Source of the DNA: Selenomonadaceae bacterium
GTDB taxonomy: Bacteria; Vulcanimicrobiota; Xenobia; Xenobiales; JADMJV01
Assembly: GCA_037189585.1 (NCBI GenBank)
Contig: JBBCJA010000018.1
Span: 887-64,886, forward strand
DNA: 64,000 bases
Reading direction: 5' to 3'
Shown here: piece after piece, positions 29,798-51,941 of the stretch
How positions within the stretch are numbered: the stretch's first letter is position 1
How the letters are laid out: each line of letters begins with the position of its first letter
Notes under the pieces: model-generated
The model's database searches: none
The model's input: only the letters and a program-made list of their open reading frames with translations
What the model was told of the DNA's origin: nothing
Translations under genes and position numbers: made by a program

Positions 29798-30028
29798 CGC
29801 TTCCCCCTCCATGCTAAATATGTTCTCTTGTATCACAAACCCAAGAAGCAAGATACCTATAGTAAAAAAATTAACGAAGCTTCCCTCACCAGGGAGAGCT
29901 TCCAGCGCGTCAAATCTTCTCTGACTGTGTCACGCAAGAAACGGCGTAAAAGAGCTCACCGAGCGCCCGTGGGAGAAGTTCCAGGGACGCTTGTCCCGGC
30001 TCCCTTCTCGACCCCGACGGAAGTTCGG

Positions 30029-35803: not shown

Positions 35804-36046
35804 ATTCTTAAGACCTCTTTCTATGGCCCTTTGGGGATCGGTCCCTGGGCCTTGATGGCAAGAATAAATGACCGACCGGTTTGGATGCAGTGGCAGGGCG
35901 TTAGATTTCTGTTAGCGGCGGCGTGTTCAGAAAAGACATGAGATTGTACAAGTCGCGGCCACAGGTCAGCGCCGCGCATGCTTTCCCTGATACGCTTTTG
36001 CAACAGGTCGTAACAGCGGCCTTAGTTAGAGTTAGGAGAGCTACTG

Positions 36047-36361
36047 ATGGGGACCTTTGAGAAAATTACGAATCGAATTTTTCCTCCAACTCCTCCTCCC
36101 CAATTCGTCGAAACTCATCTGCAGTTCCGCCGAAACGATAGCTCAAATTTCAAACTCGAGGCCGACACTCTAGAGAAGTATCACACTCACTCCAGGAAGG
36201 AAGAGGATGTCCGTCACATGGCCCGTGTCGTTGATAGCTATCAACACGTCATTTCCCTTGACGGAGATACCAGCGATCTTGATCCACGTGCCGGTCATGT
36301 CGTCTCCGCGGCGACTAATGAAGAATACCACTCGATACCGGCCAGATCGGAGACTAACTAG
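36047..36361 (+). CDS. Hypothetical protein (weak call)
   Basis: ORF only. Confidence 0.2.
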   Translation: MGTFEKITNRIFPPTPPPQFVETHLQFRRNDSSNFKLEADTLEKYHTHSRKEEDVRHMARVVDSYQHVISLDGDTSDLDPRAGHVVSAATNEEYHSIPARSETN

Positions 36362-37403
36362 GCCTGGAGGCCGAAGTCGCGGAGCGCCACTCTCCGGGAG
36401 ATGAGCCTTCCCACTTGTGAAAGGCTCGAGAAAAGGAGTTGGGATCCTCATAGCCCACGAGGTAGGCGACCTCGTGGATGTCCAGCGGAGAGTGAAGGAG
36501 GTAGTGGTGGGCCAACTCACGGCGCGCCTCCTCGAGAAGATGACGGTAGGTGTGGCCTTCCTCGATGAGGCGGCGCTGCAGCGTGCGAGGGCTGGTTCGC
36601 AGCTCCTGAGCCACGTCCTCGAGTTGAGGGCGCCGACCCGCGGCGAGGGTCTTGATCGCGGCTTTGACTTGACTTCCCAAAGAGCTGTCTTCCCACTGTT
36701 GGGACAGCTCTTTTTCGAGTTGAGGCGCCACCATCTCCAGCAAGTCGGGATTGTAGCTTAAGAAGGGGCGGTCCAAATCCTCGCTCAAGAAGACCATCAC
36801 GTTTCTATCCCTATCAAAACGGACCGGACAGCCGAAGTGCCTCTCGTAGGTCTCTCCATAAGCTTCGGACCGAGCGAGGTCGAGTCGGAGGGGACGAACA
36901 TCCCTGCCGGTTCCCCGACGTACGATCGTCAATAACCAGGAAAAACAGACGTCGACTTGGGTGGGCGGCGCCTCTTCGTCGACAAGAAGCCAGAGGAAGT
37001 CCACGAAGCTTTCATCACCGTGCTGCTCAACCCTGATCTCCTGAGGTCCGGTGAGGCGCTTGAAGCGCGAGATACGCTCTAGCGCATCTCGAAAGGAGTG
37101 AGAGTAGAGCGCCGTGATCGACACGGGGTCGTAGCGCTCGACCCGCTGCTCGCTGCCGAGTTTCAAACCGATGGTGGGGTCGCCACTGACGTCGCGAACC
37201 GCGTTGAAGAAGGCGAATCTCTCCTCGGTGGTCATCCAGATCTTGCCCTGGTCGAGAAAGCCGGCTGGAAGTCCGGCCCGACGTAAGACCGCGGCAGTCG
37301 AGACCTTCAAGTCGCGAAGTTGAGCCGCGAGGATGCTAGGCATCCGAAAGCGGGTGGCCTTGAACTGCTCACGCGAGCCTTGAAGGTCTGTCTTCTTGCC
37401 CAT
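36354..37403 (-). CDS. AraC-family transcriptional regulator
   Basis: C-terminal HTH (DVAQELRTSPRTLQRRL...YLVGYEDPNSFSRAF). AAAGGAG RBS at MGKKTD. Confidence 0.8.
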   Translation of the reverse strand: MGKKTDLQGSREQFKATRFRMPSILAAQLRDLKVSTAAVLRRAGLPAGFLDQGKIWMTTEERFAFFNAVRDVSGDPTIGLKLGSEQRVERYDPVSITALYSHSFRDALERISRFKRLTGPQEIRVEQHGDESFVDFLWLLVDEEAPPTQVDVCFSWLLTIVRRGTGRDVRPLRLDLARSEAYGETYERHFGCPVRFDRDRNVMVFLSEDLDRPFLSYNPDLLEMVAPQLEKELSQQWEDSSLGSQVKAAIKTLAAGRRPQLEDVAQELRTSPRTLQRRLIEEGHTYRHLLEEARRELAHHYLLHSPLDIHEVAYLVGYEDPNSFSRAFHKWEGSSPGEWRSATSASRPS

Positions 37404-37653
37404 GTCACTACTCCTTTGACCATCCTGGAGAAGATCATCTCCACCAAGTCGCACTGATTCTACCCCACCTAAGTCTAGAGGCTACTCACGCCATCTAGTC
37501 TTTCGGAAAGCGCCAACGGTCTAGCTCTTCACGCCAAATCCTTGACGTATCCCGCTAGAACATTGGCGCTCTCGGAATTCCATCCTGAAGGATACCGCGC
37601 TTAGAATCGAGCCATGTCCAGGAACTCTTCTCGAAGACATCGGAAGGAGAACA

Positions 37654-38538
37654 ATGTCGCTTGCCAACAACGGAGAACTCTCAATGAACCGACGAAGATT
37701 CATCGCGGTGGGAATCGACCTGGGCGCGACCCTGGGTTCGCTTATCGTAGCCAAAGGCTCCGATGCTCAGATTCTCTCGAAAGGCAAGGACGACAAGACT
37801 GTGGAGAAAGCTCGAATTTTTATAACCGGCTCAGCTGACGGGCTAGGCTACGCCGCGGCCGAGACACTGCTTACCGCGGGACATGAGGTCGTCATCCACG
37901 TCCGGTCTAGCGCGCGCCTGTCTGCCGTGAAAGACCTGGTGGGTCAAGGTGCTGTCGCGACAATCGGAGACCTTTCCAAGCTCGACCAGATACGCGATCT
38001 CGCGAGGCAGGTCAACGAGCTCGGTCGGATGGACGCGGTGATCCACAACGCGGGCATTCTCTCCGGCCCGCGACTGCTCGTCGTCAACGTCGTGGCTCCG
38101 TATCTACTCACAGCGCTGCTCCAGCGCCCTCAACGGCTGATCTATCTGAGCAGCAGCATGCACACGGGAGGTCAGGCAAGTCTAACCGGCATGGATTGGT
38201 CTGGTCGTTCCTCCACCGGCTCTTATTCGGACAGTAAGCTGTTCGTCACGACTCTGGCGGCGGCGGTCGCCCGGCTTTGGCCGGACGTTTTGAGCAACGC
38301 GGTCGATCCGGGTTGGGTTCCCACCAAGATGGGAGGAGCCAATGCGCCGGACGATCTGCGGCTAGGACATCTGACGCAAGAATGGCTTGCCACCAGCAAC
38401 GACCCAGAGGCGCTGACCAGCGGGGGATACTGGTATCACCAAAAACTCCGGAAGCCGCACTCTTCTGTTCATGACACAAAATTCCAGGATCAGCTGCTGG
38501 CCGAGCTCGCCCGTGTCACGGACACTCCACTGAGGTAA
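37654..38538 (+). CDS. Short-chain dehydrogenase/reductase with Tat-like signal peptide
   Basis: RRRFIAVG twin-arginine motif. TGSADGLGYAAA Rossmann. NAGI. Confidence 0.7.
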   Translation: MSLANNGELSMNRRRFIAVGIDLGATLGSLIVAKGSDAQILSKGKDDKTVEKARIFITGSADGLGYAAAETLLTAGHEVVIHVRSSARLSAVKDLVGQGAVATIGDLSKLDQIRDLARQVNELGRMDAVIHNAGILSGPRLLVVNVVAPYLLTALLQRPQRLIYLSSSMHTGGQASLTGMDWSGRSSTGSYSDSKLFVTTLAAAVARLWPDVLSNAVDPGWVPTKMGGANAPDDLRLGHLTQEWLATSNDPEALTSGGYWYHQKLRKPHSSVHDTKFQDQLLAELARVTDTPLR

Positions 38539-38589
38539 CCTATCCAGCGTCACTCGACTTTAATTAGGCGCCTTACTAAATATCAACTC

Positions 38590-39112
38590 ATGAGCATGCT
38601 TGCGCGGAAACATCTTGCCTTGCTGGAGGGAGCCGAGCGTCGGACCTTTGCCGATACCGATAATATACGCGCATGTTTCGAGATACTGGCACTTGCTGGC
38701 GCGATTGACAGAGATTGCGCTGTTCGACTTGCTCCCTTCCATCTTTCAGAGGGCAAGTTCGTGCTCTTAATTTTCTTCTGCACGAGCAACCTGACGGTCT
38801 GTCAACTCACGAATTGAAAGGGCGGGTGTGACGCGCGCCACGATTACCGGGCTACTCGATGGCCTTGAGCGCGATGGCTTCGTCGCGCGACGCACCAGTC
38901 TAGACGGTCGACGGAGAATCACGGTCGTTCTGACCGAGCATGGGCGGAAGACTACGCACGAGCTTCTTGACAGCCACAACACGTGGATAGCCTCTCTTTT
39001 CGGGGAATTTACCACCAACGATCTCCAAACACTCCATGCACTCCTTCGACGCATCTGGAAAAATCTCGACGCTGGTGAGAAACCAGAAGAGAGACAAGAG
39101 CCCCGGTCATGA
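38590..39112 (+). pseudogene. MarR-family regulator disrupted by a frameshift (N-part 38590..38817 in frame 1, C-part 38828..39112 in frame 2)
   Basis: N-terminal MarR-like LSEGKFVLLIFFC.SNLTVCQL, then stop. The winged-helix continues (RATITGLLDGLERDGFV) in another frame. Confidence 0.55.
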
Positions 39113-39648
39113 GCGGTGGCGCCGTCCAGAGAATTCCGGCAGATCGACTTGCGCGAATCAATGCTGGGGAAGAAGCCGCCACGCTGGCCGAATGCCTTGC
39201 TGTCGATTTTGCAGAGCTCTTGAGTCATGTCTTGCCGGAAATAGGGAACGATGCCCTAGCCGAGATGAGACAAGCTGCATCAGTCGGCATCTCCCGACGT
39301 ATGCCCCTTGCCGCTCGCTTAATCACGGATCGACTCGGGTTTTCCGCTCAAGAACAACTTGCAGAACACTCGTCGGACACGGCGCGCGGCTGGGCCTGCT
39401 TTATGCTCGGCGCCGGCGAAGGAATGGACCTCCCCCAGCGGCTTGCGGCGATCAGGCCCTATGCCGATGCTCGACATTTCGGTGTACGCGAATGGGCATG
39501 GATGGCGGTTCGTCCCCACCTTGCGGCCGAACTTGAACTCGCGATCCCTTTGCTAGTCGGCGACTGGACATCTGACCCATCCGAGCGTATCCGCCGCTTT
39601 GCCTCGGAAGCTCTCCGGCCACGCGGTGTCTGGAGACAACAACGATGA
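39109..39648 (+). CDS. HEAT-like DNA alkylation repair-like protein (weak assignment)
   Basis: C-terminal GVREWAWMAV...DWTSDPSERIRRFASEALRP resembles AlkD-family tails. Confidence 0.3.
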   Translation: MSGGAVQRIPADRLARINAGEEAATLAECLAVDFAELLSHVLPEIGNDALAEMRQAASVGISRRMPLAARLITDRLGFSAQEQLAEHSSDTARGWACFMLGAGEGMDLPQRLAAIRPYADARHFGVREWAWMAVRPHLAAELELAIPLLVGDWTSDPSERIRRFASEALRPRGVWRQQR

Positions 39649-40256
39649 AGGCAAACCCACTGACTTACGAAGGTAAAGTAGCCCTTGTCACCGGAGCGGC
39701 TTCCGGTATGGGGCTGGCCACAGCCCAAGCTTTCGCGGAAGCTGGAGCCGCAGTCGTTCTCGCCGACTACCGAGTGGAGCTCGTCGAGCAGGAGGCCGAG
39801 AAGCTGCGGGCTTCCGGCGCGCAAGCTTTGGCGCTCGCCTGTGACGTGAGCGACGAGGCGTAGGTTGCCGCCATGATGGAACGGACGGTGGCCGAGTTTG
39901 GCCGCCTGGATGCCGCTTTCAATAACGCGGGCGTCATGGCCAAGCTGGCCCCCACCGCGGAGAGCACCCTCGAAGAATGGAACCGCGTTATCAACATCAA
40001 CCTGCGCGGCGTTTGGGCCTGCCTGAAACACGAGATCCTCCAGATGCAGAAGCAAGGAAGCGGCGCGATAGTCAACAACGCCTCGGTCGGCGCTCTGACC
40101 GGCACCGGGTATTCCTTCCTACATTGCCTCGAAACACGGCGTGATCGGGTTGATCCCGAGGACTCTTCGGAAGATAGGCTCTGCTACTTTGGAGGAAATT
40201 CTGACAAACGGAGAAATGTCTATCCAATGTATAGACAGAAGTATAGCTCTCTATGA
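39645..40256 (+). pseudogene. SDR-family oxidoreductase pseudogene: in-frame TAG at 39861-39863 plus a frameshift before the YxxxK site
   Basis: VALVTGAASGMGLA...CDVSDEA-TAG-VAAMMERTVAEFGRLDAAFNNAG...NNASVGALTG, then YIASKHGVIGL only in the +1 frame. Confidence 0.6.
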
Positions 40257-40495
40257 GAGCCAGGGTTACCAAGTGGGGAAATAGCCTGGGCTTGCGACTC
40301 CCCAAAGCTCTCTCCCAGCAACTTGGCATTGAGGAAGACGGATACGTGGAGATGGAGGTCTTCCAAGGGCAGTTAGTGATCCGGCCCTCCTCTCCCCCTC
40401 CGCTTTCTCTGGAAGAACTGGTCGGCCGCATTACCCCTGAGAATCGGCACGAAGAGATGGATTGGGGCGGGGCCGTGGGAGCCGAATTTTGGTAG
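40253..40495 (+). CDS. mazE: MazE/PemI antitoxin (AbrB/SpoVT fold)
   Basis: VTKWGNSLGLRLPKALSQQLGI. Confidence 0.8.
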   Translation: MRARVTKWGNSLGLRLPKALSQQLGIEEDGYVEMEVFQGQLVIRPSSPPPLSLEELVGRITPENRHEEMDWGGAVGAEFW

Positions 40496-40827
40496 CAGGC
40501 TATGTTCCCCAACGGGGAGATCTTGTTTGGATAGACTTTGACCCACAAAAAGGGCGTGAGCAGAGAGGGCGGCGCCCGGCCCTGGTTCTTTCTCCTCAAG
40601 AGTACAACCTCAAGAGTGCCCTGGCCTGGTTCTGCCCCGTCACCTCGAAGGTCAAGGGATATCCATTCGAGGTCCCCCTACCCGAAGGACAAAAGATCCA
40701 GGGAGTGATTCTGACTGACCAGGTCCGCAGCCTAGACTACAAAGGGCGGCGGGCTGAGTTTATCGCACGTGTAGACAACGAGATTTGCCAAGCCGCCCTG
40801 GCTCGTGCCAGAACACTTTTGAGTTAG
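40462..40827 (+). CDS. mazF: MazF/PemK endoribonuclease toxin
   Basis: YVPQRGDLVWIDFDPQKGREQRGRRPALVLSP...KGYPFEV closely parallels E. coli MazF. Confidence 0.85.
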   Translation: MGRGRGSRILVAGYVPQRGDLVWIDFDPQKGREQRGRRPALVLSPQEYNLKSALAWFCPVTSKVKGYPFEVPLPEGQKIQGVILTDQVRSLDYKGRRAEFIARVDNEICQAALARARTLLS

Positions 40828-40838
40828 TTTGTCTGGCA

Positions 40839-42383
40839 TCAGCGTCCATCCCATCGCCGCAGAGGGGTCCAATCGGGCGGTGGCTGAAGCTGGGCGTTAC
40901 TGCCCACGATCACGTCCTGACTGACCTGCCAGTACTTCTGGACGTGGTGGGAAAGGTTATGAACGGCTCCCGTGTTGGGATTGATGAAGTCGTCCCGCTC
41001 GTTGATGCCATTGACCGTGTGGTGCTGCATCGTGTTGAAGGTGTTGCTCTGATTCTGCCAGCCGCTCATCTGCATGTCTCCCATCGCCATGTTGTTCTGA
41101 TGGATCTGAGTGTTGGACTGGCCCACCATGGCGATGTCGTTCATCCGCTGCTGATGCAGTGAGTTATTGAGATTAGCCCACTGGTTGTTGAGCTGACTCT
41201 GCTGAAACATCTGGTTTCCGAACATCGCTGAGGAGCGAGCCTGCTCGTTTTGTTTCCAAGCGGGATTGCTCTCCACACTTTGGGCTACACCTAGAAAGAC
41301 CGCCTCAAACTTCGGCATAAGAACAGCCGGCGCCTGATACCAGTAGGTATGGCCGCCCATCCAGCGGCCGGTGTTTCCCAGTGGAAAGCCACCCAGCTTG
41401 AGTACCCGAATGATGTCTCCCGGGAGCCAGATACGGACTTCAGCCTGGTCGGGCTTACCTTGGTCGGTGTAGCTTAACATGCGACAGCCCGGCATACTCT
41501 GCTGCCAGCGCGGCCACAACACATGCTCCACCGCCGGACGCAAACCATGAAAGGGACAGATGGTCTCCCCCATCGCTTGGGCCATCCCATGACCCGCGTT
41601 CGAGACCAGGCGGCCCAGCATACCGAAGAGCCCTTCATCCGGAGCCGCCTGACGCGGCAGCTCTCCCTGAATAAAGGTCTGATACTCAGGCTCGAGAGCC
41701 AAAAAGATATGCCCCGAAGACTCAGCGAAAACGCGGGCCATCGGCTGGCGCATCCCGGTCATGCTCGGCGGCGGTACCAGGCGTGACTGGCATTGCCATC
41801 CCAGCGGAAGGTCCAAGACGAAGGCGCCTTCCTGAGGTTCACACCAGCGCTGCCTTGGGATCGGCGCGATGGGATTGAGAGAGGCGAGCATCTTTCCGAA
41901 CTGGGTCTCCAGTTCGCCTTGAAAGTTGGGGCGGCTCCGCCCTACCGCCAGTGTCCCCCCTTGCGGTGTTAAGTGCACGGAGATCACCCCTCGCCACTCC
42001 GGCCCTTCGAAAGCAGCTCTGAGATAGCTGTCGCTACTCCCCTCGAGAATCTCGCCTTGATGTCCAGGCAAGGTCGCAAGATACAACTCCGCGTGCTGAG
42101 CGGCGTTTATCATGGTCTGGGCCGGGAGAAGAACGAGCTCGAGTTGGGCTAAGAGCTCGGGGCCCTGAAAGGTTACCCCGGCTCCTTCTGAAGCAACCGC
42201 CTCCCATCCGTCCGGGGAAACGGTCGCGAACCCACGCCAGGCATTCTGGTAAAGCTGATATCCCGGCTCGATGTCCGGCGCTTTCAAAATCGTGGCGGTA
42301 CTCGGCGCACCGCATCGCTGGCAAGCGGTCTGCTCCCGAAGAACCTCCCCATCGCAATGCTGACAAAAAGACTTCAAAATCAT
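40839..42383 (-). CDS. Zinc-ribbon protein with Q/N-rich C-terminal low-complexity (prion-like) region
   Basis: N-terminal CQHCDGEV...CQRCG. C-terminal ~120 aa rich in Q/N/M (NQMFQQSQLNNQWANLNNSLHQQ...). Confidence 0.5.
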   Translation of the reverse strand: MILKSFCQHCDGEVLREQTACQRCGAPSTATILKAPDIEPGYQLYQNAWRGFATVSPDGWEAVASEGAGVTFQGPELLAQLELVLLPAQTMINAAQHAELYLATLPGHQGEILEGSSDSYLRAAFEGPEWRGVISVHLTPQGGTLAVGRSRPNFQGELETQFGKMLASLNPIAPIPRQRWCEPQEGAFVLDLPLGWQCQSRLVPPPSMTGMRQPMARVFAESSGHIFLALEPEYQTFIQGELPRQAAPDEGLFGMLGRLVSNAGHGMAQAMGETICPFHGLRPAVEHVLWPRWQQSMPGCRMLSYTDQGKPDQAEVRIWLPGDIIRVLKLGGFPLGNTGRWMGGHTYWYQAPAVLMPKFEAVFLGVAQSVESNPAWKQNEQARSSAMFGNQMFQQSQLNNQWANLNNSLHQQRMNDIAMVGQSNTQIHQNNMAMGDMQMSGWQNQSNTFNTMQHHTVNGINERDDFINPNTGAVHNLSHHVQKYWQVSQDVIVGSNAQLQPPPDWTPLRRWDGR

Positions 42384-42568
42384 ACAGTATCACCTTACCT
42401 TACAATTCTATCTCTTTCGGTGACGTCGGTCACGTGAGAAGGTGCAAGTCAATGGACGGACAGCCGTTAGCTCCGGTCCGACTCATGAGGCCGGTGACTC
42501 CGATAGGTCCTGTAGAGATTCGAGACCTCTTGGAATGAAGATTACCTGACACGGGCGAACGGGCCGGC

Positions 42569-43393
42569 ATGAAACGCGCGGCGCTGGTCTATGATTTTGA
42601 CGGAACCTTAGCACGGGGGAACATTCAGGAGCATTCTTTCATCCCCGGACTCGGCATCGAGATCGAGGATTTTTGGCAGCGCTCGAACGGGGCGGCCCGC
42701 GAGCACGACGCCGATCAGATTCTCACCTATATGTATGAGATGATGGTTCAGGCCAAGTCTCGTGGGCTGAAGCTGACCCGAGACTCTCTCTTAGAGCACG
42801 GTCGTACCGTGCCATTTTTCGACGGGGTGGAGAGTTGGTTCGGCCGGGTGAACGCCTATGCTCAGAGTCAGGGGCTTGCCCTGGAGCACTACGTCATCAG
42901 CTCGGGCATCCGCGAGATGATCCTCGGTTGCTCCGTCGCTCAGGAGTTCCGGCAGGTTTTCGCCTCGAGCTTTCTCTACAATGAAGAGGGAGAGGCGGTA
43001 TGGCCGGCCTTGAGTATCAACTACACTACCAAGACCCAATATCTGTTCCGCATCAACAAAGGTATCGACAACTGCTGGGACAACGAGGCCATCAACCGCT
43101 GGGTTCCTCCCGGAGACCGCCGTCTGCCCTTTGAGAACATGGTGTTTTTAGGCGACGGTGAAACGGATATCCCCTCGATGAAGATGGTACGTCATCAAGG
43201 CGGTTACGCCGTGGCCGTGTTCGACCCCGAGAAATGGGATAGGCTGCAGTCGCGCATTACCGGCCTGATCGCCGAAGACCGCACCAACTTCGTCGCCCCT
43301 GCTGACTATTCCGAGGGCAGTCAGCTGGAAGTCACCGTGCGCGGCCTCCTGGGGCGAATCGCCGGACCAAAAGAGTGTACGACATCTTTATGA
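42569..43393 (+). CDS. HAD-superfamily hydrolase
   Basis: YDFDGTL motif I. FLGDGETDIP motif IV. Confidence 0.7.
   Translation: MKRAALVYDFDGTLARGNIQEHSFIPGLGIEIEDFWQRSNGAAREHDADQILTYMYEMMVQAKSRGLKLTRDSLLEHGRTVPFFDGVESWFGRVNAYAQSQGLALEHYVISSGIREMILGCSVAQEFRQVFASSFLYNEEGEAVWPALSINYTTKTQYLFRINKGIDNCWDNEAINRWVPPGDRRLPFENMVFLGDGETDIPSMKMVRHQGGYAVAVFDPEKWDRLQSRITGLIAEDRTNFVAPADYSEGSQLEVTVRGLLGRIAGPKECTTSL
43242..43390 (+). repeat. Direct repeat copy 1 (3' end of HAD gene)
   Basis: ~150 nt, ~85-90% identical to 49149..49290. Confidence 0.7.
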
Positions 43394-43430
43394 AAGGGAA
43401 TCACGAATAGCCTTTGGGTCTCTCACCGCC

Positions 43431-44849
43431 TTGGCGGCTTTTCTTCTTTCTTGCTCGACCGCTGAAAGGAGCTTGAAGGCGGAACCGCCAGCCTTGGAAG
43501 CGAAGCGGCGGGGCATGACTAGAGCTCGTCGGGGTATGCTGGTGGCCGGGGTGCTGTTGGCTCTTCTTTTCCTGGGCGGCTGGCTGGCTGACCGGGCTTG
43601 GAACAGGCAGGCCGAGGAGGATGTTCGACGGAGGCTGCTCGATTCGCTGAGCAACGACCAGAGAAGAAAACTGCTCAATGTATCTAAAGACGAACTTCTA
43701 CGTCAGGTCTCTGGAATCGAACAAGAGCTCCAGTGGCTTCAGTCCACTCCATGGGGAGCCGAGGTATGGGAGCAAGGTCGTCTCTTGGGACAGACACCGA
43801 TGCCCCGACCCAAGGGCGACACGACCTTAGAACTTCGCACTCCGTGGCGAAGGGCGACGGTTGGTCCTGGGGAATTGCAGGCGACCCTCTCCCCAAATCT
43901 CCTCACCCTGAGCTTACGCCTGGCTGGGCTGCTGGGGTTGGCTCTCATCGGGCTATCCTTTCGCTCTCGTCCCGAGCCTATCGAAGCCGTCGAAACCGTC
44001 GAGGCAATCGAGGAACGAAAGCCCGTTGCCGAGTCGGATCGCTTTGGAGACTTCGAGAGACTAGAGCTCTGCGGCGAAGGAAGCATGGGTACTGTCTACC
44101 GCGCCCGTTCGAGCAAAGCCGACAATCGTTCGGTCTACGCGCTGAAGATTCTCCATCCCCAATGGAGCCAGGCAGAGGAATTTCGCCAACGCTTCGAGCG
44201 AGAGTACCACATCTGCCGGCAGCTCGATAGCGACCGAGTGGTGCGGGTTCACGCCCACGGCGAAAAGGACGGTCGACTTTGGATGGTCATGGATTTCGTC
44301 GAAGGCCCTACCTTGACCGAGTGGTTGGCTTCAACCCCTCGTCAGGAGTGTGAGATTCTAGAGATAGCCGTGGCTATCTGCGACGGACTCTCCTACGCCC
44401 ACGGCCTGGGTATCGTGCATCGCGATCTTAAGCCCGACAACATCCTTGTCAGCGGCGAGAGGTCGCCCGTGATCACCGACTTTGGACTGGCTCGCAGCCG
44501 CCACTACGCTACCATCACCCAGGCCCATACCGTGCTCGGAACCCCCGCCTATATCGCCCCTGAGCAAGTCGAAGGGTCCACCATCAACGGCCAAGCCGAT
44601 CTCTATTCTCTGGGCTGCATACTTTACGAAGCACTCGCCGGGAGACCACCGTTCCAAGGCGAGGCTATGCAAGTGGTGTTAGCTCAGCTCACCAAGCAGC
44701 CAGAGCCTCTCTCCGAGTACGTCAAGGTTTCTCCGGCCTGCGAGGCTTTAGTTCATCGCCTTTTGGCCAAAGACAAGTCGAGCCGCTACGCCTCCGCCGA
44801 AGAGGTGCGCCAAGATCTGCTGGCCGCCAATAAGGGCGCGATCGCTTGA
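43431..44849 (+). CDS. Hanks-type Ser/Thr protein kinase with N-terminal TM and coiled region
   Basis: [39 protein letters not shown]. Confidence 0.8.
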
Positions 44850-46129
44850 AGTCTCGCCAGTCGTTGATCAGGCTCCGCCCTCAGTAGCTTCTCCACTAAT
44901 TCCGCGAAAGCCGGTGGACAGTCGAGGCGCACTTGGGCCAACGGCCGATACCGCTCCTGAGCTTGCGCGGCTAAAATTTGTAGCCCTTCGCACTCGGCAT
45001 ATGGTCCAGCTCCACAAGCCCAGGCGTACAAAGTACATCCCAAGGCGTAGTAGTCCGAAGCGGCCACAGCGCTGCCTTGAAGCTGCTCAGGCGCCATAAA
45101 GCCCAAAGTTCCCGAATGGCCGCTAGTCTCTCCCTGCTCCGACAGCCGCCCAGCGACCCCGAAGTCGAGAAGATGGGCCTTCCCTCTTGCATCAATGATC
45201 ACGTTGGCAGGCTTAAGATCGCGATGCACGATACCCTTGTCGTGGGCGTAATCGAGCGCCGTGGCCAGTTGCTCCGCCCAAACCTCGAGCTGTGCGAACG
45301 ACGGCCTAACGATCTCCTCACTTCTTCTTCCTTCCACCAGTTCCGTGACGAGCCAGACAAAATCTGTGCTCTCGCCCCAGTCCAAAAGATGAACGATGTG
45401 CGGGTGGGAGAGAGTTCTCCAGACCTCCACTTCGTCGCGGAAGCGGTGACGCGCCTCTGGGTCATCGGTCCAATCGGAGCGCAATACCTTCATCGCCAGT
45501 GGCTCTCCCCCATCCAAGCGGCGCACACGGTAGACGCGGCTCATACCTCCCCGCCCAAGCTCTCCCTTGATTCTATAGCCGAACAGCTCCACTCCCGGGT
45601 GCAACTCTTTTCGAGCTAGCGACTCGCTCAGACGTCGCTGTCGGCGTAGAACCGGGCGAACCCTAAAGAACCCAAACCCGGCAAGGATGAGCACAACGGA
45701 AAGGAGCGGAGCGAAGTCGCGCGCCGCGTAGCACAGAGGCGACAGAACCCACCACCTGGAACGCATCTCCACCATCCGTTCACCCCGAGCGAGCTCCTCA
45801 GGGGAAAGATGAACCGTCTCTTCATGGTATCCTGGCAAGGAGAGAATTAAGGTAAAGTCCGCCCTCTCCTCAAGGCCGATAGGGAGAGGGCCTGGAGTGT
45901 ACCCAATGGGGTTTCTGTGGAATCCGCTCACGCTCATGGAGTAGGTATCGACTCTAGCGCCGCTCGGGCGGCTCCGGAGATAGATGGCCCCGAGAGCTTC
46001 TCTTTTGGGCCAAGAAAGCCAAATTTGCCCCAAGAGCAGAATGCAACTTATCGCGGCTATCCCATAAGTTTGACGACGCAACTTCTCCACTCCGGCTAGT
46101 GCAGCATTCGGCCAACACCTCCCTGCCAT
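44786..46129 (-). CDS. Ser/Thr protein kinase with N-terminal PEGA-like domain and TM
   Basis: [39 protein letters not shown]-terminal SRPSGARV...GYTPGPL. Confidence 0.8.
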
Positions 46130-46197
46130 CCGTGTGTTGAAGTCTTCAGTCGTGAAGTATTCTTCCCACCGGTGCGATCTGTTAAAATACCGCTGTC

Positions 46198-46602
46198 GTG
46201 AGGAAAAGGAGCAAATATGGATTCTCCTTAGCGGAGTTGATGCTCGCTTTTGTCGTGCTTTCCGTTCTCTCGGTCGTGCTTATCGGAGTCGTTCCCTCCA
46301 CGATTATCGGTCTCAAGGGGGCAAGCCAAAGGGCCAATGCGGCACTGCTGGCTCAAACCCAACTCGAGGAGCTTCGCCGCACCGGATTTAGCTCCGTCAC
46401 CCCGACTCTCGAACCGTATCCCACAGCCGTGATGGAGCGGACCGACTATACCTACCGAGTCGAGGTGGAAGAGGCCCGACTGAGCAGCGGAGAGGCCATG
46501 AGTCCTGATGTCGCCAAGCTAGCCAGCGTGGTGGTTGAGTGGCGGAGTAAGAGCGGACCCCAGACTTATACCGCCAGCGCGGTGATGTTCAAGCGGATAT
46601 GA
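46198..46602 (+). CDS. Prepilin-type minor pilin/pseudopilin
   Basis: [19 protein letters not shown] class III signal (G|FSLAE). Confidence 0.75.
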
Positions 46603-47213
46603 GCCGTCAAAGTGGAGTAAGCTTAGTGGAGGTCATGATCGCCGGCGGCCTCCTTTTACTCGTCACCGCGATGATGGTCGCTCTGCTCCTACCCTCCTTT
46701 TCTCTCTTCCGCAAACAGGGAGGGCAGTCGGATGCCTATCGCGTGTGTCTGCAAACCATCGAAAAATTTCGCCTGGAGATGCTCAACACTCAACTGGAAT
46801 GCCTTACTATCACCCCGGATCTGCAAGCCATCGCCTGGCAGGAGACTCTGGCGGATCCTCCTTTCTCCGTGACCAGTGGAGAGCCGCTCATGAATGACAT
46901 CTTCACAGTTTTGCACTACCGTGATCGACGAGTGCTAATAACGCGCAGCGAACCGAGTGGGACCGGAACCTCCACTATCCCCTCGCGACTGGGCCTTGAT
47001 GAGGTGATGGAATTGCGTGCTCGTCAAACGAGGACCCTGGCCCGCGATATCACCGCTTTTGAAGTTCGCGACAACGACCCGGACTCGCCCCTCACAACGC
47101 CTCCCATTCGTATGTCTTTGACCTGCACTATCGATACCAAGGGAAGAGCCAGCAACGACGAAGAGTCCTTTAAGATGAACGTAACCGTCACGCCGAGGAG
47201 CCAACGCTGGTGA
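46599..47213 (+). CDS. Prepilin-like minor pseudopilin (GspJ/PilW-like)
   Basis: SGVSLVEVMIAGGLLLLV. ATGA overlap with neighbours. Confidence 0.6.
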   Translation: MSRQSGVSLVEVMIAGGLLLLVTAMMVALLLPSFSLFRKQGGQSDAYRVCLQTIEKFRLEMLNTQLECLTITPDLQAIAWQETLADPPFSVTSGEPLMNDIFTVLHYRDRRVLITRSEPSGTGTSTIPSRLGLDEVMELRARQTRTLARDITAFEVRDNDPDSPLTTPPIRMSLTCTIDTKGRASNDEESFKMNVTVTPRSQRW

Positions 47214-49090
47214 GAATTTCAATTCGTGGAGCTGTCTCCCTACTCTCCGTACTCTGCCTGGTGGGGATCGTGATGATTCTCGCTTCGGCCATGGTCGGAG
47301 TGTTCTCGATGAATCTGAACATGACCCAAAAGTCGTTCAACGGCTCCATCGCCGAATCCGAAGCCGAAGCTGGGATAGCCGAAGCGCTTTACCGTATCAC
47401 CGACGCCAATGACAACAATATCGACAACAGTCAACAGCCGCCCGCGGTAAAGTACGGCCGCTCCAGCGAGACGATTCGAGGCACCATCACCCCGAAACTC
47501 AGTCCAGAGGAAGCTTACCACGTCGTAACTTTTGCCGAGGGGACCGGATTCCCACATTCCACCAATAACACCTATCTCGATCGCGATACCGGCTCTTTGG
47601 GACGGGCCGTGCCTGACGGGATGTTTCACATCGTCTCCACCGGCTACTGCCGTGGTCAATATCGCACCATCGAGGCCTTGATCTCCAAACCTCCCTTTCC
47701 TTTTGGTCTGGCCACCTCCGGAAAGTTGGTGTCGCCCGATCCTTTCGTCGTCAAAGGGGTCTCCTCGATATCCGACCTACTCGACGACAAGGAAGATCGC
47801 CCTGGACATATTCTTTGTAACTCCCCAGAAGGCGTAACGATCGGACAGAGCGATCCGCCTCGACCAACCTACATCAGTGGTTTCGTGAAATCGGTCGGAC
47901 CGATCTCCATCGAGCAGCCCGCCCAAGTTTTAGGAGGGTTGCGCCCAGGAGCCGATGCCTCCACTCTTGCCACTATCGATGTCAAGAAGTTCAGGAATGA
48001 AGGTCAGCCCGGAGTTGTGACGATCAACGATCCGAACTTCGTCAGAGATCAGACCATGGACATCATGTACTTTTACTCTGGCAACCTGCTCACCTACGAG
48101 CGTTCGGTCAAGCTCAACAAGGCCTTTCTTTATGTCGAGGGCGACCTCTTGATCAAGGGTCCGGTCACTGGTGAAGGCCTGATCGTGGTGGACGGAAACG
48201 TCACCTTCGGCTCAGGCACAGCCCTAGATGGCGCCAACAAGATGGCGGTACTCGCCTCCGGCGACATCACGATTCGGGGGGCCAACAACTATTTCACCGG
48301 CCTCATTTACTGCGGAGGAGACTTTACAGCCTCCAACGTGACGGTGGTAGGGAATACCGTGGTCAACTCCCCCGATCCTGAGAAAGGTAAAGCGAACCTG
48401 GAGAATGTGACGATGATCAGCAACACCGAAACAGCGGACATGACGATCACCATCACTTCAAGTAGTCACGCCGAGGGGCAGGATAACGCCCCCGATGCTG
48501 TCATTCCGCTCGGTATCACCTCAGACACCTTCGGGTTACCCACGGACTGGGATTACTCCAATGGTGGCGGTGGTGGGCTTGGTGGCTGGATCGACCCAAA
48601 AAATCCCCAAAGCATGTACGTGGAAATTTTGATGGATCTCTGGCAGGCCTCTCTTGACCCCTCTTCCCAATTCCCCGTCCTGGGAATGAAACCGTCTGGA
48701 AAAGGTGTCGACGGTATCTGGGATCAAGCGACCGCTCTCTACGAGCTCGCGAGCCAAAATCGAAGTGTCAGTGACCAGATCAACCAGTTGGAATCGAGCA
48801 AAGAATCCGCGCAGGGAAACCATGAACTCTTGGCCCAAATTGAAGCTCAAATTCAAGCACTCGAAGCATCACAAGCCGAGGCCAAGATCGTCTTTCAAAC
48901 CGCGGCGGCGGCTCTCGTCAATTCTATTTACAACCACATGAAAGCCCACGCCGACGGCGATGGAACGTACGACGACGGCACTGTGGACATGGACATCGTC
49001 ATCAAGCAGAGATTCAACCTCAACGAGTATCTTCCCGAGAGCGAACGGGTCAAGATCGCCTATTGGCGGGTTCATCACCGCCGCTTCTAG
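47210..49090 (+). CDS. Large pilus-associated protein (PilX/GspK-like), paralog of 269..2014
   Basis: N-terminal TM, shared sequence blocks with 269..2014. Translationally coupled to the pseudopilin genes. Confidence 0.55.
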   Translation: MRISIRGAVSLLSVLCLVGIVMILASAMVGVFSMNLNMTQKSFNGSIAESEAEAGIAEALYRITDANDNNIDNSQQPPAVKYGRSSETIRGTITPKLSPEEAYHVVTFAEGTGFPHSTNNTYLDRDTGSLGRAVPDGMFHIVSTGYCRGQYRTIEALISKPPFPFGLATSGKLVSPDPFVVKGVSSISDLLDDKEDRPGHILCNSPEGVTIGQSDPPRPTYISGFVKSVGPISIEQPAQVLGGLRPGADASTLATIDVKKFRNEGQPGVVTINDPNFVRDQTMDIMYFYSGNLLTYERSVKLNKAFLYVEGDLLIKGPVTGEGLIVVDGNVTFGSGTALDGANKMAVLASGDITIRGANNYFTGLIYCGGDFTASNVTVVGNTVVNSPDPEKGKANLENVTMISNTETADMTITITSSSHAEGQDNAPDAVIPLGITSDTFGLPTDWDYSNGGGGGLGGWIDPKNPQSMYVEILMDLWQASLDPSSQFPVLGMKPSGKGVDGIWDQATALYELASQNRSVSDQINQLESSKESAQGNHELLAQIEAQIQALEASQAEAKIVFQTAAAALVNSIYNHMKAHADGDGTYDDGTVDMDIVIKQRFNLNEYLPESERVKIAYWRVHHRRF

Positions 49091-49148
49091 GGCCCCACGA
49101 CTGTCACTCGAAATAAGTGTTGAAAACTGTACAGCGTGCTCTCGGGAC

Positions 49149-49290
49149 CGGCTGCAGTCGCGCATCACCGGTCTGATAGCCGAAGACCGCACCAACTTCG
49201 TCGCCCCCGCCGACTACTCCGAGGGAGTCAGCTGGGGGTAACCGTGCGCGGTCTCCTCGGACGGATCGCCGGACGAAAAGTACGTCATCC
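49149..49290 (+). repeat. Direct repeat copy 2: degenerate fragment of the HAD gene 3' end, preceded at 49107..49136 by a 3'-end fragment of gene 50642..51040
   Basis: Sequence alignment to 43242..43390. The fragment is frameshifted relative to the intact gene. Confidence 0.7.
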
Positions 49291-49312
49291 GTGAATTGCC
49301 TGTCCTCGACGG

Positions 49313-50584
49313 CTAGTTACCAGAGGGCTCCGCTGCGAGCTTCTCAGGTCGGTCCACCCGCCCCATCATGAGTACCGCGCCGCTGCCGCTATGTCGTAGG
49401 AGAAAGGCGAAAGGCCGCTCGAAGGTCAAAACCTTTGGTGGGGGTTTGACAGCCGACCCTCTCCGGCTCACGACCACGGCTGTGGCAGCGGCGGCTTCCG
49501 TACCCTCTTCATCCACTTTCACGTATGTCTTGTGATAGATGTTGAGCTCAAGTCGCTCGGGACTATCCAGGATCAGCATGCGGGTCAGATCGGGGTTCTT
49601 CACGACCTGCGCTAGACCGATTTCTCGCCAGGCCTCGGTCAGCTCGAAGGTGGGCACCTCGAATTCGAAGCGTGGTAGTCTCAGGGTGACCTCCTCCGCG
49701 GATTCGCTCGGCTCGAGGTAGAAAGAGGAGAGCGCCTTGTCGGGCTCTATTCCCTGGTCCGGCAATAAAAAGACCATCTCGAAGCCCTCCTGATAGGGCA
49801 AGGTCACCCCGGTCGCCCCCCGCAGGCGGAAGCTGGCGACCCCTGGGCGTGTCATCATCGGGGTTTGTAGTGTCTCTCCCGAGGAAGTCGTGAAGGTTCC
49901 CGGTCGAGTGTGTTCTTTCTCGAACTTACTCCGCCAGCTCCCCTTGAAGTGCAGGGCGGAGACCAGCACGCTGACGGTATCGCGACCGAGCGTGGGTAGA
50001 AAATCTTTGATCAGACCGGCGGTACGCTCGGCCACCCAGTCGTTGATGACTTGTGTCGCCCTCTTCGGGTCAGTGGAGAAAGGTAGAACTTGAACAGGAT
50101 CGGTCAGTAACGGCTTGATCTTGACGGAGTAACTCTCGACAAGCTTGACCGACTGATCCAGATAAATTTTCTGGGCCAAAGCCAGAGATTCGGTCTCGTC
50201 CAAACCGCCGGCTAGCTTCGTCAGCTCCCCGAGGACCTCTCCTTTCAGCCCGGTGGCCGCGGCGATCTCCTCTTTGGTTCTCCCTTCAGCTCCCTCTTGC
50301 ATCAGACCTAACAGAAGGTAAGAGCCCAGCGGACTGACAGCCAGGTTTCCGGGCTTCTTCCCGGCCACCGCTTCGTACAAGTTCTTGTTGAAGTTAGCCA
50401 ACCCAACACTAACCTCTTTAGAGATAACGAGCTCGGGGACTGCGGAGGGTGGAGGTGCCACCAGCTTCTGAACGGGTGATGGAGAGGCTGTCTGCTGTGG
50501 CCCCGGTGGGAGCGAGGAAGGTTGGCAAGCGGAAATAAGGAGGCCTCCGAAGATGCCCAAAGCCAAGAGTTTGAGTGAGTTCAT
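49313..50584 (-). CDS. Serpin (serine protease inhibitor) lipoprotein
   Basis: C-terminal serpin signature FERPFAFLLRHSGSGAVLMMGRVDRP. Lipobox LLISAC. Confidence 0.85.
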   Translation of the reverse strand: MNSLKLLALGIFGGLLISACQPSSLPPGPQQTASPSPVQKLVAPPPSAVPELVISKEVSVGLANFNKNLYEAVAGKKPGNLAVSPLGSYLLLGLMQEGAEGRTKEEIAAATGLKGEVLGELTKLAGGLDETESLALAQKIYLDQSVKLVESYSVKIKPLLTDPVQVLPFSTDPKRATQVINDWVAERTAGLIKDFLPTLGRDTVSVLVSALHFKGSWRSKFEKEHTRPGTFTTSSGETLQTPMMTRPGVASFRLRGATGVTLPYQEGFEMVFLLPDQGIEPDKALSSFYLEPSESAEEVTLRLPRFEFEVPTFELTEAWREIGLAQVVKNPDLTRMLILDSPERLELNIYHKTYVKVDEEGTEAAAATAVVVSRRGSAVKPPPKVLTFERPFAFLLRHSGSGAVLMMGRVDRPEKLAAEPSGN

Positions 50585-50641
50585 AGCTGTCCTAGTCGTG
50601 CGGAGGGCTCTCTTATTCCAGGAAGTCCGCTCGGGAGGAAA

Positions 50642-51040
50642 TCACTCGAAGTAGGTGTTGAAAACGGTATAGGATTTGAGTAGCTTCTCCGCCATCGCGT
50701 TACGCCTAGTTGCATCCTTCTCGCTAGCCATGGTGTTGACCATCTCCATGTACGGGACCAGCCAGTTGTGCAGCTGATCGTGCGCCGGACCCGTCATGGT
50801 GCAGTTGGAGACAAGTTTTTGTAGATTGGACTGAAGCTCCCGATGGAGCAGTTGTTTCTGGGAGTTTGAGGCGGAAGGGTATTCGCGAAGGTCTTTTTCC
50901 ATAGCACGCAGGTAGACCATCATCTTAGGCTCCACTTTCCAACGCTCACCGGCATTGAGATCGAGCTTCGTTTCTGAATCAGCCCAGGTGGGAGCTGAGG
51001 AAAGTAAGAGTAGGGCTAGAACGAGGAGTAGTTTGGGCAT
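50642..51040 (-). CDS. Small secreted protein, upstream of the serpin in the same operon
   Basis: Signal peptide LLLSSAPTWA. Confidence 0.5.
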   Translation of the reverse strand: MPKLLLVLALLLLSSAPTWADSETKLDLNAGERWKVEPKMMVYLRAMEKDLREYPSASNSQKQLLHRELQSNLQKLVSNCTMTGPAHDQLHNWLVPYMEMVNTMASEKDATRRNAMAEKLLKSYTVFNTYFE

Positions 51041-51176: not shown

Positions 51177-51941
51177 CTAAAAGAGAGAGGCGTCAAGCTC
51201 CTCGAAACTTGTCATGACTTCAAACCCGAGTCCGCGATAGCAACGGATGGCAACCTCGTTGGCCGCCCGAACGTTTAGTCCGATATGATCGACATCCTGG
51301 AGGAGGCGACGACATAGCGTTCCTACCACGCGATTTGCCAAGCCGCGTCCGCGAAAGTCAGGATGGGTTGCTATGTTTCCCAAAGCGGCCACTTTGTAGC
51401 GTGGAGACCAGACGTGAACGCCAGCCACGCATGCTAGTCGTCCATCCATGCGCAGCCCCAGGTAGCGTTCCGTCACCAGCATGATGGGGTCGAACCAGTT
51501 CCCGGGATAGCTCTGGTCATAGAAGGCCACAAGCTCAGTCTCAGTGTCTTGAGTAAGGGTCTCGACAGCCGGGTCCTCCTCGGGCAACTTCTCCGGCCGC
51601 TCTAAAGCCATGCGTAGGGTCGTCATCCGGCCGCTGACCTGATAGTGCTGCTCAAGGACTGTTACCAATCCCGGCGCGATCTGAGCATGGAAGTGCCTGG
51701 GCAACAAAGATGCCGCCTGAGCCAATAGTTCACGCGCACCGGCCGTTTCCCTCATAGCCAAAAGGGCCGGTGGAGAAGCGGCATAGAGCAACATCACCGC
51801 CTCGAGGTCGTCAGAAGAGTACCAAGAGGTACGAGGCCAATAGAGGGCGTCCAAGTCACCCAACTCGTAAAGGTGAAGAAGAGGGTCTCTAGCCAGGCTC
51901 CGTTCGATAAGATCGCGATCGTGGAGAATAAGCACCCCCAC
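51177..51941 (-). CDS. GNAT-family N-acetyltransferase
   Basis: C-terminal RGRGLANRVV...GFE motif A. Confidence 0.65.
   Translation of the reverse strand: MGVLILHDRDLIERSLARDPLLHLYELGDLDALYWPRTSWYSSDDLEAVMLLYAASPPALLAMRETAGARELLAQAASLLPRHFHAQIAPGLVTVLEQHYQVSGRMTTLRMALERPEKLPEEDPAVETLTQDTETELVAFYDQSYPGNWFDPIMLVTERYLGLRMDGRLACVAGVHVWSPRYKVAALGNIATHPDFRGRGLANRVVGTLCRRLLQDVDHIGLNVRAANEVAIRCYRGLGFEVMTSFEELDASLF

Follow-up and report, generated by a model that had tools for sequence, protein, structure and literature searches.

The locus considered here raises the question of why the 3' end of a gene for a HAD-family hydrolase occurs twice in the same orientation, with a block of kinase and pseudopilin genes between the copies, and why the second copy is preceded by the end of yet another gene. 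It lies in a stretch of 64,000 nucleotides from a Selenomonadaceae bacterium (hereafter the window, by which we mean this stretch at its full length), and the features discussed are listed in Table 1. We consider it reasonably probable that the repeats are the scar of a recombination event in the strain-variable DNA that separates the HAD gene from a GNAT acetyltransferase gene, where two diverged versions of the interval were stacked and then eroded. The scar is an ordinary one and not a new mobile element, and no new mechanism is implied.

A blastn search of the window against itself, a check proposed in the preliminary description of this DNA, recovered as the strongest self-match of the 64 kb the pair 43236-43373 and 49144-49280 (138 nt, 87.7% identity, one gap, E = 5.5e-42), and global alignment carries the homology between the HAD gene and its downstream copy (HAD') on to the stop codon of the latter at 49292-49294, with two small indels. 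The claim of a second, degenerate and frameshifted copy of the final ~150 nt of the HAD gene is thereby upheld: HAD' reads DRLQSRITGLIAEDRTNFVAPADYSEG in frame, followed by a 1-nt deletion at ~49224 and then by SQLGVTVRGLLGRIAGRK. The intact HAD protein has 98% aa identity to one homologue (P0001) and 95% to two others (P0139 and P0141).

Table 1 Features of the HAD-GNAT interval in the window, with strand and basis of assignment
Feature	Coordinates	Strand	Basis
HAD-family hydrolase gene, intact, 274 aa	42569..43393	+	Pfam HAD
Repeat copy 1, last 158 nt of the HAD gene	43236-43393	+	self-blastn
5' relic of DUF6929/DUF6910 lipoprotein gene, ~70-98 nt	43390..43487	+	blastn, tblastn, alignment
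Five-gene kinase/pseudopilin cassette	43488..49090	+	Pfam and NCBIfam
kinA, Hanks-type kinase	43515-44849	+	Pfam
kinB, Hanks-type kinase	44786-46129	-	Pfam
pil1, pseudopilin-like	46198-46602	+	Pfam and NCBIfam
pil2	46599-47213	+	Pfam and NCBIfam
pil3	47210-49090	+	Pfam and NCBIfam
Spacer, pil3 stop to X' relic	49091..49103		alignment with L058 tail
X' relic, last 9-10 codons and stop of a diverged copy of gene X	49104..49134	-	repeat search, translation, shuffle test
9-nt filler (CGTGCTCTC), X'/HAD' joint	49135..49143		read from sequence
HAD' relic (repeat copy 2), last ~50 codons of a diverged HAD allele	49144..49294	+	self-blastn, alignment
Serpin gene, 423 aa	49313..50584	-	Pfam Serpin E=5.6e-71
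Gene X, intact, 132-aa secreted protein, upstream of serpin gene	50642..51040	-	
GNAT acetyltransferase, conserved right-hand neighbour	51177..51941	-	Pfam

The second relic, X', derives from gene X, a member of a very rare family for which only four protein clusters were found, and for which a metagenome scan returned a single relative at 37%. X' matches 50642-50672 at 27/31 positions and encodes (C)TVFNTYFE and a stop on the minus strand. When the 28-mer at the 3' end of X was searched with at most three mismatches, just two sites matched, as against 0/100 dinucleotide-preserving shuffles. The copy noted earlier at 49107..49136 is therefore real, but its actual position is the one given in Table 1.

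As had been suggested, 49091-49312 is a patchwork of 3'-end fragments, and we regard these as relics left by a rearrangement. The spacer after pil3 ('TTCTAGGGCCCCAC') is homologous to the last DUF6929 codons of a sister strain ('TTCAAGAGTCCCAC' in L058). Beyond it, the truncated 5' sides of X' and HAD', the interiors of two unrelated genes, face each other across the 9-nt filler, and the HAD' stop lies 18 nt from that of the serpin gene. At the other end of the interval, the DUF6929 relic has an ATG that overlaps the stop codon of HAD, and it loses its frame after codon 2 through a 4-nt deletion. The relic aligns clearly with the intact gene (343 aa, with the L058 protein assigned by Pfam) to ~43461 and weakly to ~43487; blastn of the sister-strain contigs L058-L063 against the window stops at 43459, and tblastn with the L058 protein matches 43395-43508. 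The window has lost this DUF6929 gene, which formerly lay between the repeats.

The genes that now occupy the interval have the composition of their surroundings, the GC content and tetranucleotide usage of both the cassette and the serpin-X pair being typical of the window. In the cassette, the pil genes encode two N_methyl pseudopilins and a 626-aa protein (Pfam). PADLOC matched the kinases to PD-T4-6 and mad6, but these are generic kinase-domain matches and were rejected as evidence of a defence system.

Arrangements in related strains show how variable the interval is. The sister strain (L058-L063) carries HAD-DUF6929-X' without the kinase/pilin cassette, and in more distant relatives (L075/L076 and L078/L079) HAD faces GNAT directly. 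Contig L072, from another sample, contains the 3' end of DUF6929, the cassette and then an X' relic of 166 nt with an in-frame stop; window 43490-48573 has 93-94% nt identity to L072 and L073. Contig L074 has the order X' relic, HAD' relic, serpin, X, is 94% nt identical to the window over 49285-50681 with the same HAD'-serpin junction, and lacks the 140 nt of HAD' that the window retains. It ends in a 30-mer (k-1) shared with the tail of L058, so that the two adjoin in the assembly graph, a link between sister-sample contigs and not one continuous contig. Of two further contigs, L077 has HAD (only 82% nt identical to that of the window) followed directly by kinA, and in L065 the X-serpin pair adjoins a RecG-like gene instead of GNAT. 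A search of the HAD-kinA gap of L077 for a trace of DUF6929 gave no significant match (96/500 and 30/500 shuffles were as good). Neither HAD followed directly by serpin (an empty site) nor HAD - serpin - X - GNAT was found among the contigs reached. Upstream of HAD, synteny with the more distant relatives is lost, and further rearrangements have therefore occurred. A scan of genome contigs with HAD returned relatives at no more than 59% identity plus one contig-edge fragment at 81% (L053), none of them syntenic, and the contexts of three HAD homologues at 83-87% (P0002, P0005 and P0007) were likewise not syntenic.

Relic lengths across these strains separate primary from secondary junctions. 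X' sits at the same place in L072, L074 and the window, with lengths of 166, ~83 and 31 nt, respectively. HAD' retains codons ~224-272 in the window, and in L074 codons ~207-218 fused to its last 8 nt; since the two keep different pieces, their common ancestor must have had a longer HAD'. Because the L074 junction differs and the three X' relics are of different lengths, the junction at 49135-49143 must be a later, secondary deletion particular to the window lineage. Relatives without the cassette, with which the preliminary description had suggested a comparison, do exist. In each of the three strains sampled, later deletions have taken away the original joint, and the last 30 nt of L072, where it might have been expected, have no HAD homology. 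The length of L072 (5902 nt, against a repeat spacing of 5908 nt) suggested a circle, an interpretation rejected because its ends do not overlap.

The nature of the relics is indicated by their substitutions. HAD and HAD' are separated by 14 synonymous and 2 non-synonymous changes (dS 0.54, dN 0.02), a synonymous excess with P about 1e-6 against neutral expectation, and a hand count over three sequences gives ~9 synonymous to 1 non-synonymous HAD'-specific changes, plus one frameshift. For X and the L072 X' relic, dS is 1.1 and dN 0.11 (dN/dS about 0.1). Because the changes are almost only synonymous, as expected of displaced alleles under purifying selection, the relics derive from diverged, recently functional copies and are not decayed local duplicates; judged from these counts, both diverged as functional genes and were truncated late. 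Over 135 nt, HAD' has 16-17 differences from the HAD genes of the window and L058, and 26-28 from those of L077 and L075. This grouping, together with the typical composition, points to an exchange within one lineage complex. The divergence of HAD and HAD' (16 differences) is barely above that of the window and L058 orthologues over the same stretch (13), and gene conversion may have blurred the history. The gap in dS between the HAD pair and the X pair, with ~35 synonymous sites each, may also reflect two separate events.

A plausible history would begin with the interval in two diverged forms, HAD - DUF6929 - (kinase/pseudopilin cassette) - X' (A-type) and HAD' - serpin - X (B-type). The A-type haplotype is seen in L058, L072 and L077, and the B-type only as the X-serpin pair in the other context of L065. 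A single illegitimate joint would have linked the interior of X' to that of HAD', and a homologous exchange elsewhere would have finished the event, either by homology-facilitated illegitimate recombination (HFIR) of linear DNA or by integration of a circularised fragment through a single crossover. The face-to-face truncated 5' sides have the geometry expected if one haplotype had been joined by its end to the beginning of the other. Both versions would thus have been stacked in tandem, not swapped, leaving inner copies of X' and HAD' that were redundant and truncated, and which deletions could trim differently in each strain. In the window lineage this would have ended with 31 nt of X', ~150 nt of HAD' and a DUF6929 gene reduced to a 5' relic of 70-98 nt. 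As to which side was donor and which recipient, the kinases are probably old neighbours of HAD, because the two are already adjacent in L077, and the later arrival may just as well be the serpin-X side.

The preliminary description had favoured a Campbell-type single crossover or other rearrangement that brought the kinases and the minor-pilin operon into the locus. The geometry does fit one homologous exchange, but the ~150-bp repeats do not mark an original crossover or att boundary, and it may not have been this event that delivered the cassette. In its specific form, the proposal has a circular DNA, which carried ~150 bp of the HAD 3' end together with both kinases and the pilin operon, enter the HAD 3' end through one crossover. 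This seems to us unlikely, even though direct repeats flank a 5.9-kb interval and the X' relic sits where the joint of the circle would be expected, other samples preserve the cassette as one block, and incoming linear DNA is known to circularise and integrate by a single crossover (PMC3240628). Against it, the repeat boundary is not original (L074 has HAD' upstream of it, and X' in L072 is at least 166 nt), DUF6929 lay between the repeats and occurs in the sister strain without the cassette, and the 82%-identical relative suggests that the kinases were already beside HAD. Nor are there replication, mobilisation or integrase genes: Pfam and NCBIfam revealed no plasmid genes at the locus, and a plasmid megablast of 42-52 kb gave no match. 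A site-specific integrative element (genomic island) at the HAD 3' end, with the repeats as attL and attR, is very improbable. Duplication of a gene 3' end at both ends of an insert is indeed a classic island signature, yet neither the interval between the repeats nor its flanks contain an integrase, recombinase, excisionase or transposase (Pfam, NCBIfam and PADLOC found no integrase or recombinase among all genes from 40.8 to 51.9 kb), and a 138-nt repeat at 88% identity, whose longest exact run is 29 nt, is unlike short, near-identical att cores. The composition is host-typical, relic lengths vary by strain, and no tRNA gene lies near the repeats, the only one being at 5537-5611.

An old tandem duplication of the HAD...X segment, with independent replacement of cargo (DUF6929 and cassette in one unit, serpin in the other) and decay of the inner copies, would yield the observed order HAD...X' / HAD'...X, and purifying selection on both copies is compatible with long-functional paralogues. 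We nonetheless find this rather improbable, as the cargos (DUF6929, kinases and pseudopilins versus serpin) are unrelated and would require at least two extra replacements, self-blastn shows no other similarity between the units, and distant relatives have a single HAD facing GNAT and no X. Moreover, HAD' is no more diverged than sister orthologues, while X and X' are much more so. There is also the question of whether the patchwork exists at all, since the sequence comes from an assembled metagenome and related contigs end precisely at the repeated 30-mer, which shows that mixed strains confuse the assembly graph at this place. A chimeric contig is nevertheless scarcely credible: exact matches are short (29 nt for HAD, 11 nt for X), and a k-mer misjoin would merge copies and not leave truncated duplicates attached to sequence of unrelated kind. 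A Logan contig (L057) has the same arrangement at 100% identity, and independent samples (L072, L074) repeat the cassette-X' and X'-HAD'-serpin junctions at ~6% divergence; the patchwork is therefore not a one-off assembly artefact.

The proposed stacking of two diverged versions has parallels in known systems. Flexible genomic islets are stretches of strain-variable content between core genes, turned over by recombination and a deletion bias. The HAD-GNAT interval resembles them in holding from 0 to 7.8 kb of varied cargo in close relatives, mostly through deletions, and differs in that relics of flanking genes are preserved, leaving its history partly readable. HFIR is documented, and so is the route in which a fragment is ligated into a circle and then integrates by a single crossover (PMC3240628); HFIR is known from Acinetobacter, Streptococcus pneumoniae, Pseudomonas stutzeri and E. 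coli (PMC3240628; references in PMC5361080). In HFIR, one homologous anchor and one illegitimate joint add foreign or allelic DNA with no integrase, and a truncated resident gene can remain beside the incoming copy, much as here; however, the event at this locus is read from a scar, and its joint is so eroded that the 3-8-bp microhomology typical of HFIR is no longer legible. Campbell integration likewise leaves direct repeats of the homologous region flanking an insert, whereas here a plasmid or phage backbone is absent, the two repeat copies differ by 12% in an allelic pattern of synonymous changes, and their present ends are secondary deletions not shared by descendants. Displaced 3' ends and orphan genes are also documented for T6SS and Rhs arrays (PMC5361080, which for C-terminal displacement cites, among its sources, Jackson et al. 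2009). There, too, modules are stacked and not swapped: the arriving module has a conserved upstream part, and the previous 3' end is shifted downstream, where it persists as an orphan. Here, by contrast, toxin and immunity genes play no part, the displaced ends being those of a HAD hydrolase and a small secreted protein; a single stacking step can be seen, and the orphan is decaying, with no apparent selective reason for it to be kept.

Among ~94%-identical strains of this uncultured lineage, the HAD-GNAT interval gains and loses modules, namely the two-kinase/pseudopilin cassette, the DUF6929 lipoprotein, and the serpin with its small secreted partner. It is doubtful, though conceivable, that the interval is an integrase-free hotspot that stacks cargo modules with the 3' ends of HAD and X as recurring anchors. 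If so, displacement of the Rhs/T6SS-orphan kind would extend to these ordinary, non-toxin genes, and the diverged HAD/HAD' repeats would permit occasional loss of the 5.9-kb cassette. For other loci, synonymous and non-synonymous counts within a fragment offer a means of telling a displaced allele from a decayed local duplicate, and relic lengths across strains a means of recognising which junctions are primary.

The patchwork itself has no function, and the sole effect we foresee is that rare recombination between HAD and HAD' could remove the intervening 5.9 kb. Its segment, 49091-49312, contains no terminator-like site, Rfam gave no match and its RNA fold is unexceptional (z = -0.09). Annotation should treat both this segment and 43390-43487 as gene relics instead of ORFs, and the mechanically called ORFs at 48869-49195, 48960-49241 and 49136-49294 are spurious.

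When the window was compared with itself by blastn, as the preliminary description had proposed, the strongest internal match within the 64 kb joined 43236-43373, at the end of the intact HAD hydrolase gene, to 49144-49280, in a relic of a diverged copy (HAD'), over 138 nt at 87.7% identity with one gap (E=5.5e-42); in a global alignment the homology reaches, across two small indels, a TGA at 49292-49294. In one frame HAD' reads DRLQSRITGLIAEDRTNFVAPADYSEG and, after a 1-nt deletion, SQLGVTVRGLLGRIAGRK, matching the C-terminus of the hydrolase. Nine bases to its left lies a second relic, X', which shares 27 of 31 positions with the last 31 nt of gene X and whose minus strand encodes (C)TVFNTYFE*; a 28-mer search of the X 3' end, allowing up to 3 mismatches, found two sites only (X and X'), and none in 100 shuffles. 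Both recurrences had been noted beforehand and are borne out, their coordinates being off by a few bases, and the gene identities then given for the segment agree with Pfam. The patchwork of relics has no Rfam match and no unusual folding in an Rfam scan and RNA fold, and the mechanical ORFs of 52-108 aa that span it should not be annotated as genes.

Features of the window discussed in the text (window positions)
Feature	Position	Strand	Description	Basis
Second strain-variable patch	35953-40256
AraC regulator	36354-37403
adh_short gene	37654-38538		full
adh_short fragments	39645-39863, 39873-40256		two, adjacent
MazE/PemK toxin-antitoxin pair	40253-40827		directly after adh_short fragments
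514-aa protein	40839-42383	-	no family (sub-threshold zinc-ribbon match only)
HAD hydrolase	42569-43393		274 aa	Pfam
DUF6929 5' relic	43390-~43487
Cassette (kinA, kinB, pil1-3)	43515-49090		five-gene unit: two kinases, three pseudopilin-like genes
Two Hanks kinases	overlap 44786-44849		convergent, overlap 64 nt	Pfam
Catalytic-loop segment shared by both kinases	44394-44441 / 45203-45250		48 nt, 90% complementary
Two N_methyl pseudopilins and 626-aa protein				Pfam
Patchwork	49091-49312
X' relic	49104-49134
HAD' relic	49144-49294
Spurious ORFs	48869-49195; 48960-49241; 49136-49294	-; +; +
Serpin				Pfam
X	50642-51040	-	no Pfam family
GNAT				Pfam

Across 45 aligned codons, 14 synonymous and 2 non-synonymous changes separate HAD from HAD' (dS 0.54, dN 0.02; P ~1e-6 against the neutral expectation), and a site-by-site comparison of the window HAD, HAD' and the HAD of L058, a related strain's contig, assigns to HAD' alone about 9 synonymous changes, 1 non-synonymous change and the frameshift. 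The three clear differences between the 31-nt X' and X are likewise synonymous, and the longer X' relic of a second related contig, L072 (52 codons), gives dS 1.1 and dN 0.11 against X. Because these changes are predominantly synonymous, both relics were functional during nearly all of their separate history and were truncated recently; they are alleles that were displaced and not local duplicates that decayed. Over 135 nt, HAD' shows 16-17 differences from HAD of the window and of L058 (13 differences separate those two) and 26-28 from HAD of the next relatives, which places its source in a close lineage. In GC content and tetranucleotide composition, both the cassette and serpin plus X are typical of the window.

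Relative contigs from other samples were obtained by protein searches and exact-protein context look-ups. In L075/L076 and L078/L079 (HAD 80-82% nt identical), HAD and GNAT are convergent and 52-75 nt apart, so that the conserved frame is HAD-GNAT, and 43.4-51.1 kb of the window is variable filling; L075 is collinear with the window further right, across the glycoside hydrolase at 59.7-62.4 kb. Upstream of HAD the window is not syntenic with more distant relatives. The gene for the 514-aa protein, 98% conserved in the sister strain, stands in place of the GT2/TPR gene of L075, and synteny thus breaks immediately left of HAD; the same replacement probably applies relative to L077, where only a short unidentified ORF is present.

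Closer relatives divide the filling in different ways. The contigs L058-L063 are ~94% nt identical to window 39645-43459, and in them HAD is followed by a gene for a 343-aa DUF6929/DUF6910 lipoprotein, whose ATG overlaps the HAD stop and whose 3' end extends 14 nt into an X-like 3' end on the opposite strand; the contigs terminate within this X-like end (L058, L059 and L061 exactly 30 nt past it). In L074, 94% nt identical to window 49285-50681 and read in window orientation, a ~83-nt X' relic is followed by ~100 nt of unknown sequence and then by a HAD' relic, the serpin and the X 3' end. The HAD' relic of this contig, GTTACGCGGTGGCCGTGTTC (HAD codons YAVAVF), belongs to a 34-nt match to 43189-43222 and runs straight into ATCCGTGAATGGCCTGTC, a junction of HAD' end and serpin that it shares with window 49286-49303. 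The 30-mer found at both L074 ends and at the tails of L058, L059 and L061 is the k-1 overlap expected of a k=31 graph, through which the natural path is HAD-DUF6929-X' relic-HAD' relic-serpin-X, without the kinase/pilin cassette.

L072, present in four samples, and L073 match window 43490-48573 at 93-94% nt identity and have the order DUF6929 3' end, kinA, kinB, pil1-3, X' relic; this relic spans 166 nt, is only 80% identical to window X and has a TGA in place of the X Cys, after which homology is lost. In L077 (HAD 82% nt identical), HAD is followed after 150 nt by a kinA homologue (62% aa identity), whose leader is homologous to that of L072 kinA. L065 has X (72% aa) and then the serpin (76% aa), adjoining a RecG-like gene. 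None of the relative contigs retrieved has a pure HAD-serpin-X-GNAT order.

Homology to the DUF6929 strains extends at least 66 nt beyond the HAD stop, so the stretch that follows is a DUF6929 5' relic, with a 4-nt frameshifting deletion, and the left breakpoint lies outside HAD; the similarity to the L072 kinA leader begins at ~43488. The right cassette end is followed by a spacer, TTCTAGGGCCCCAC, with homology to the final DUF6929 codons of L058, TTCAAGAGTCCCAC; ancestrally in this lineage the cassette therefore had the DUF6929 3' end on one side and X' on the other. The HAD' parts kept by the window and by L074 are complementary, and X' lengths in three strains are 166, ~83 and 31 nt, so the relics of the common ancestor must have been longer. 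The window junction at 49135-49143 is thus not the primary recombination joint but arose by a deletion at a later stage. Since TTC microhomology occurs at both cassette borders, cassette gain and loss are both possible, and lack of the cassette in the L058 type could be ancestral or due to deletion. An old cassette, later deleted in the L058 type, is favoured by the linkage of HAD and kinA seen in the distant L077; in that case every change after the joint would be a deletion.

We consider it reasonably probable, as the best explanation, that two diverged haplotypes of one interval, HAD-DUF6929-(cassette)-X' and HAD'-serpin-X, were united by one illegitimate joint and then trimmed by deletion. 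The joint would have linked the X' interior to the HAD' interior and, with homologous exchange elsewhere, made both cargos co-resident; deletions would then have cut back the redundant inner copies, in a different way from strain to strain, and also removed DUF6929 in the window. The pathway could have been homology-facilitated illegitimate recombination of linear DNA, or a fragment could have been closed into a circle by ligation and have entered through a single crossover; both are documented (PMC3240628). The preliminary description had pointed to a Campbell-type insertion or other rearrangement. In its specific form, with a circle carrying ~150 bp of HAD plus the cassette, we think the Campbell model unlikely: the window junction is secondary, DUF6929 lay inside the repeats, a sister strain lacks the cassette and the HAD-kinase linkage is old. 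A Campbell-type pathway may nonetheless have served the primary event. What holds of that proposal is that rearrangement stacked two gene sets at the HAD-GNAT interval; the repeats as now seen are not the crossover sites, and the event need not have brought in the kinases and pilin operon, the cassette probably being an old neighbour of HAD.

Tandem duplication, to which we give a little less credence still, requires unrelated cargo in both units and fits poorly with relatives having a single-copy HAD-GNAT. An integrase-driven island is very improbable, given the absence of a recombinase or tRNA nearby, long repeats of 88% identity and normal composition; misassembly is equally hard to credit, as the longest exact matches between copies are just 29 nt (HAD) and 11 nt (X), the structure is truncated and duplicated, not merged, and parts of it are reproduced in other samples. 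The patchwork is a real and well-resolved but ordinary scar of recombination, within a strain-variable islet of an uncultured bacterium, and adds one more example to a known class. In outcome it is similar to T6SS/Rhs arrays, with their displaced 3' ends and orphan genes (PMC5361080).

Several further observations concern these genes. Other samples carry the cassette at 93-94% nt conservation; there are weak matches of pil1 to 'Verru_Chthon cassette protein B' (TIGR02598, E=2e-6, below cutoff) and to XpsI, and of pil3 to GspK. The X family is very rare, with only 4 clusters among 5.8 billion proteins; X has a signal peptide, and its CTMTGPAHDQLHN motif is invariant. In two lineages, those of the window and L065, X is the immediate upstream neighbour of the serpin, and more distant homologues lie downstream of an RND efflux/OEP operon (L066). 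In the sister strain (L074 ends, L058 tail) X and X' agree exactly over 30+ nt at the 3' end, against just 11 exact nt in the window, which suggests gene conversion between intact X and relic in that strain. Within the 45 aligned codons, window HAD' has no difference of its own at codons 12-30 and 10 in the other 26, and codons 12-30 may be a conversion tract.

Elsewhere, at the window's second strain-variable patch, the L058-type strain has a HisKA_3 kinase in place of the AraC regulator and full adh_short gene of the window; homology with that type resumes at 39645, within the two adh_short fragments. A 160-nt direct repeat (27704-27859 vs 28544-28699; 76% identity, E=1e-24) within ORF 27527-29851 (-) is probably an internal domain duplication, and near the window's right end a 28-nt direct repeat (63173-63200 vs 63371-63398) has 96% identity and 198-nt spacing.
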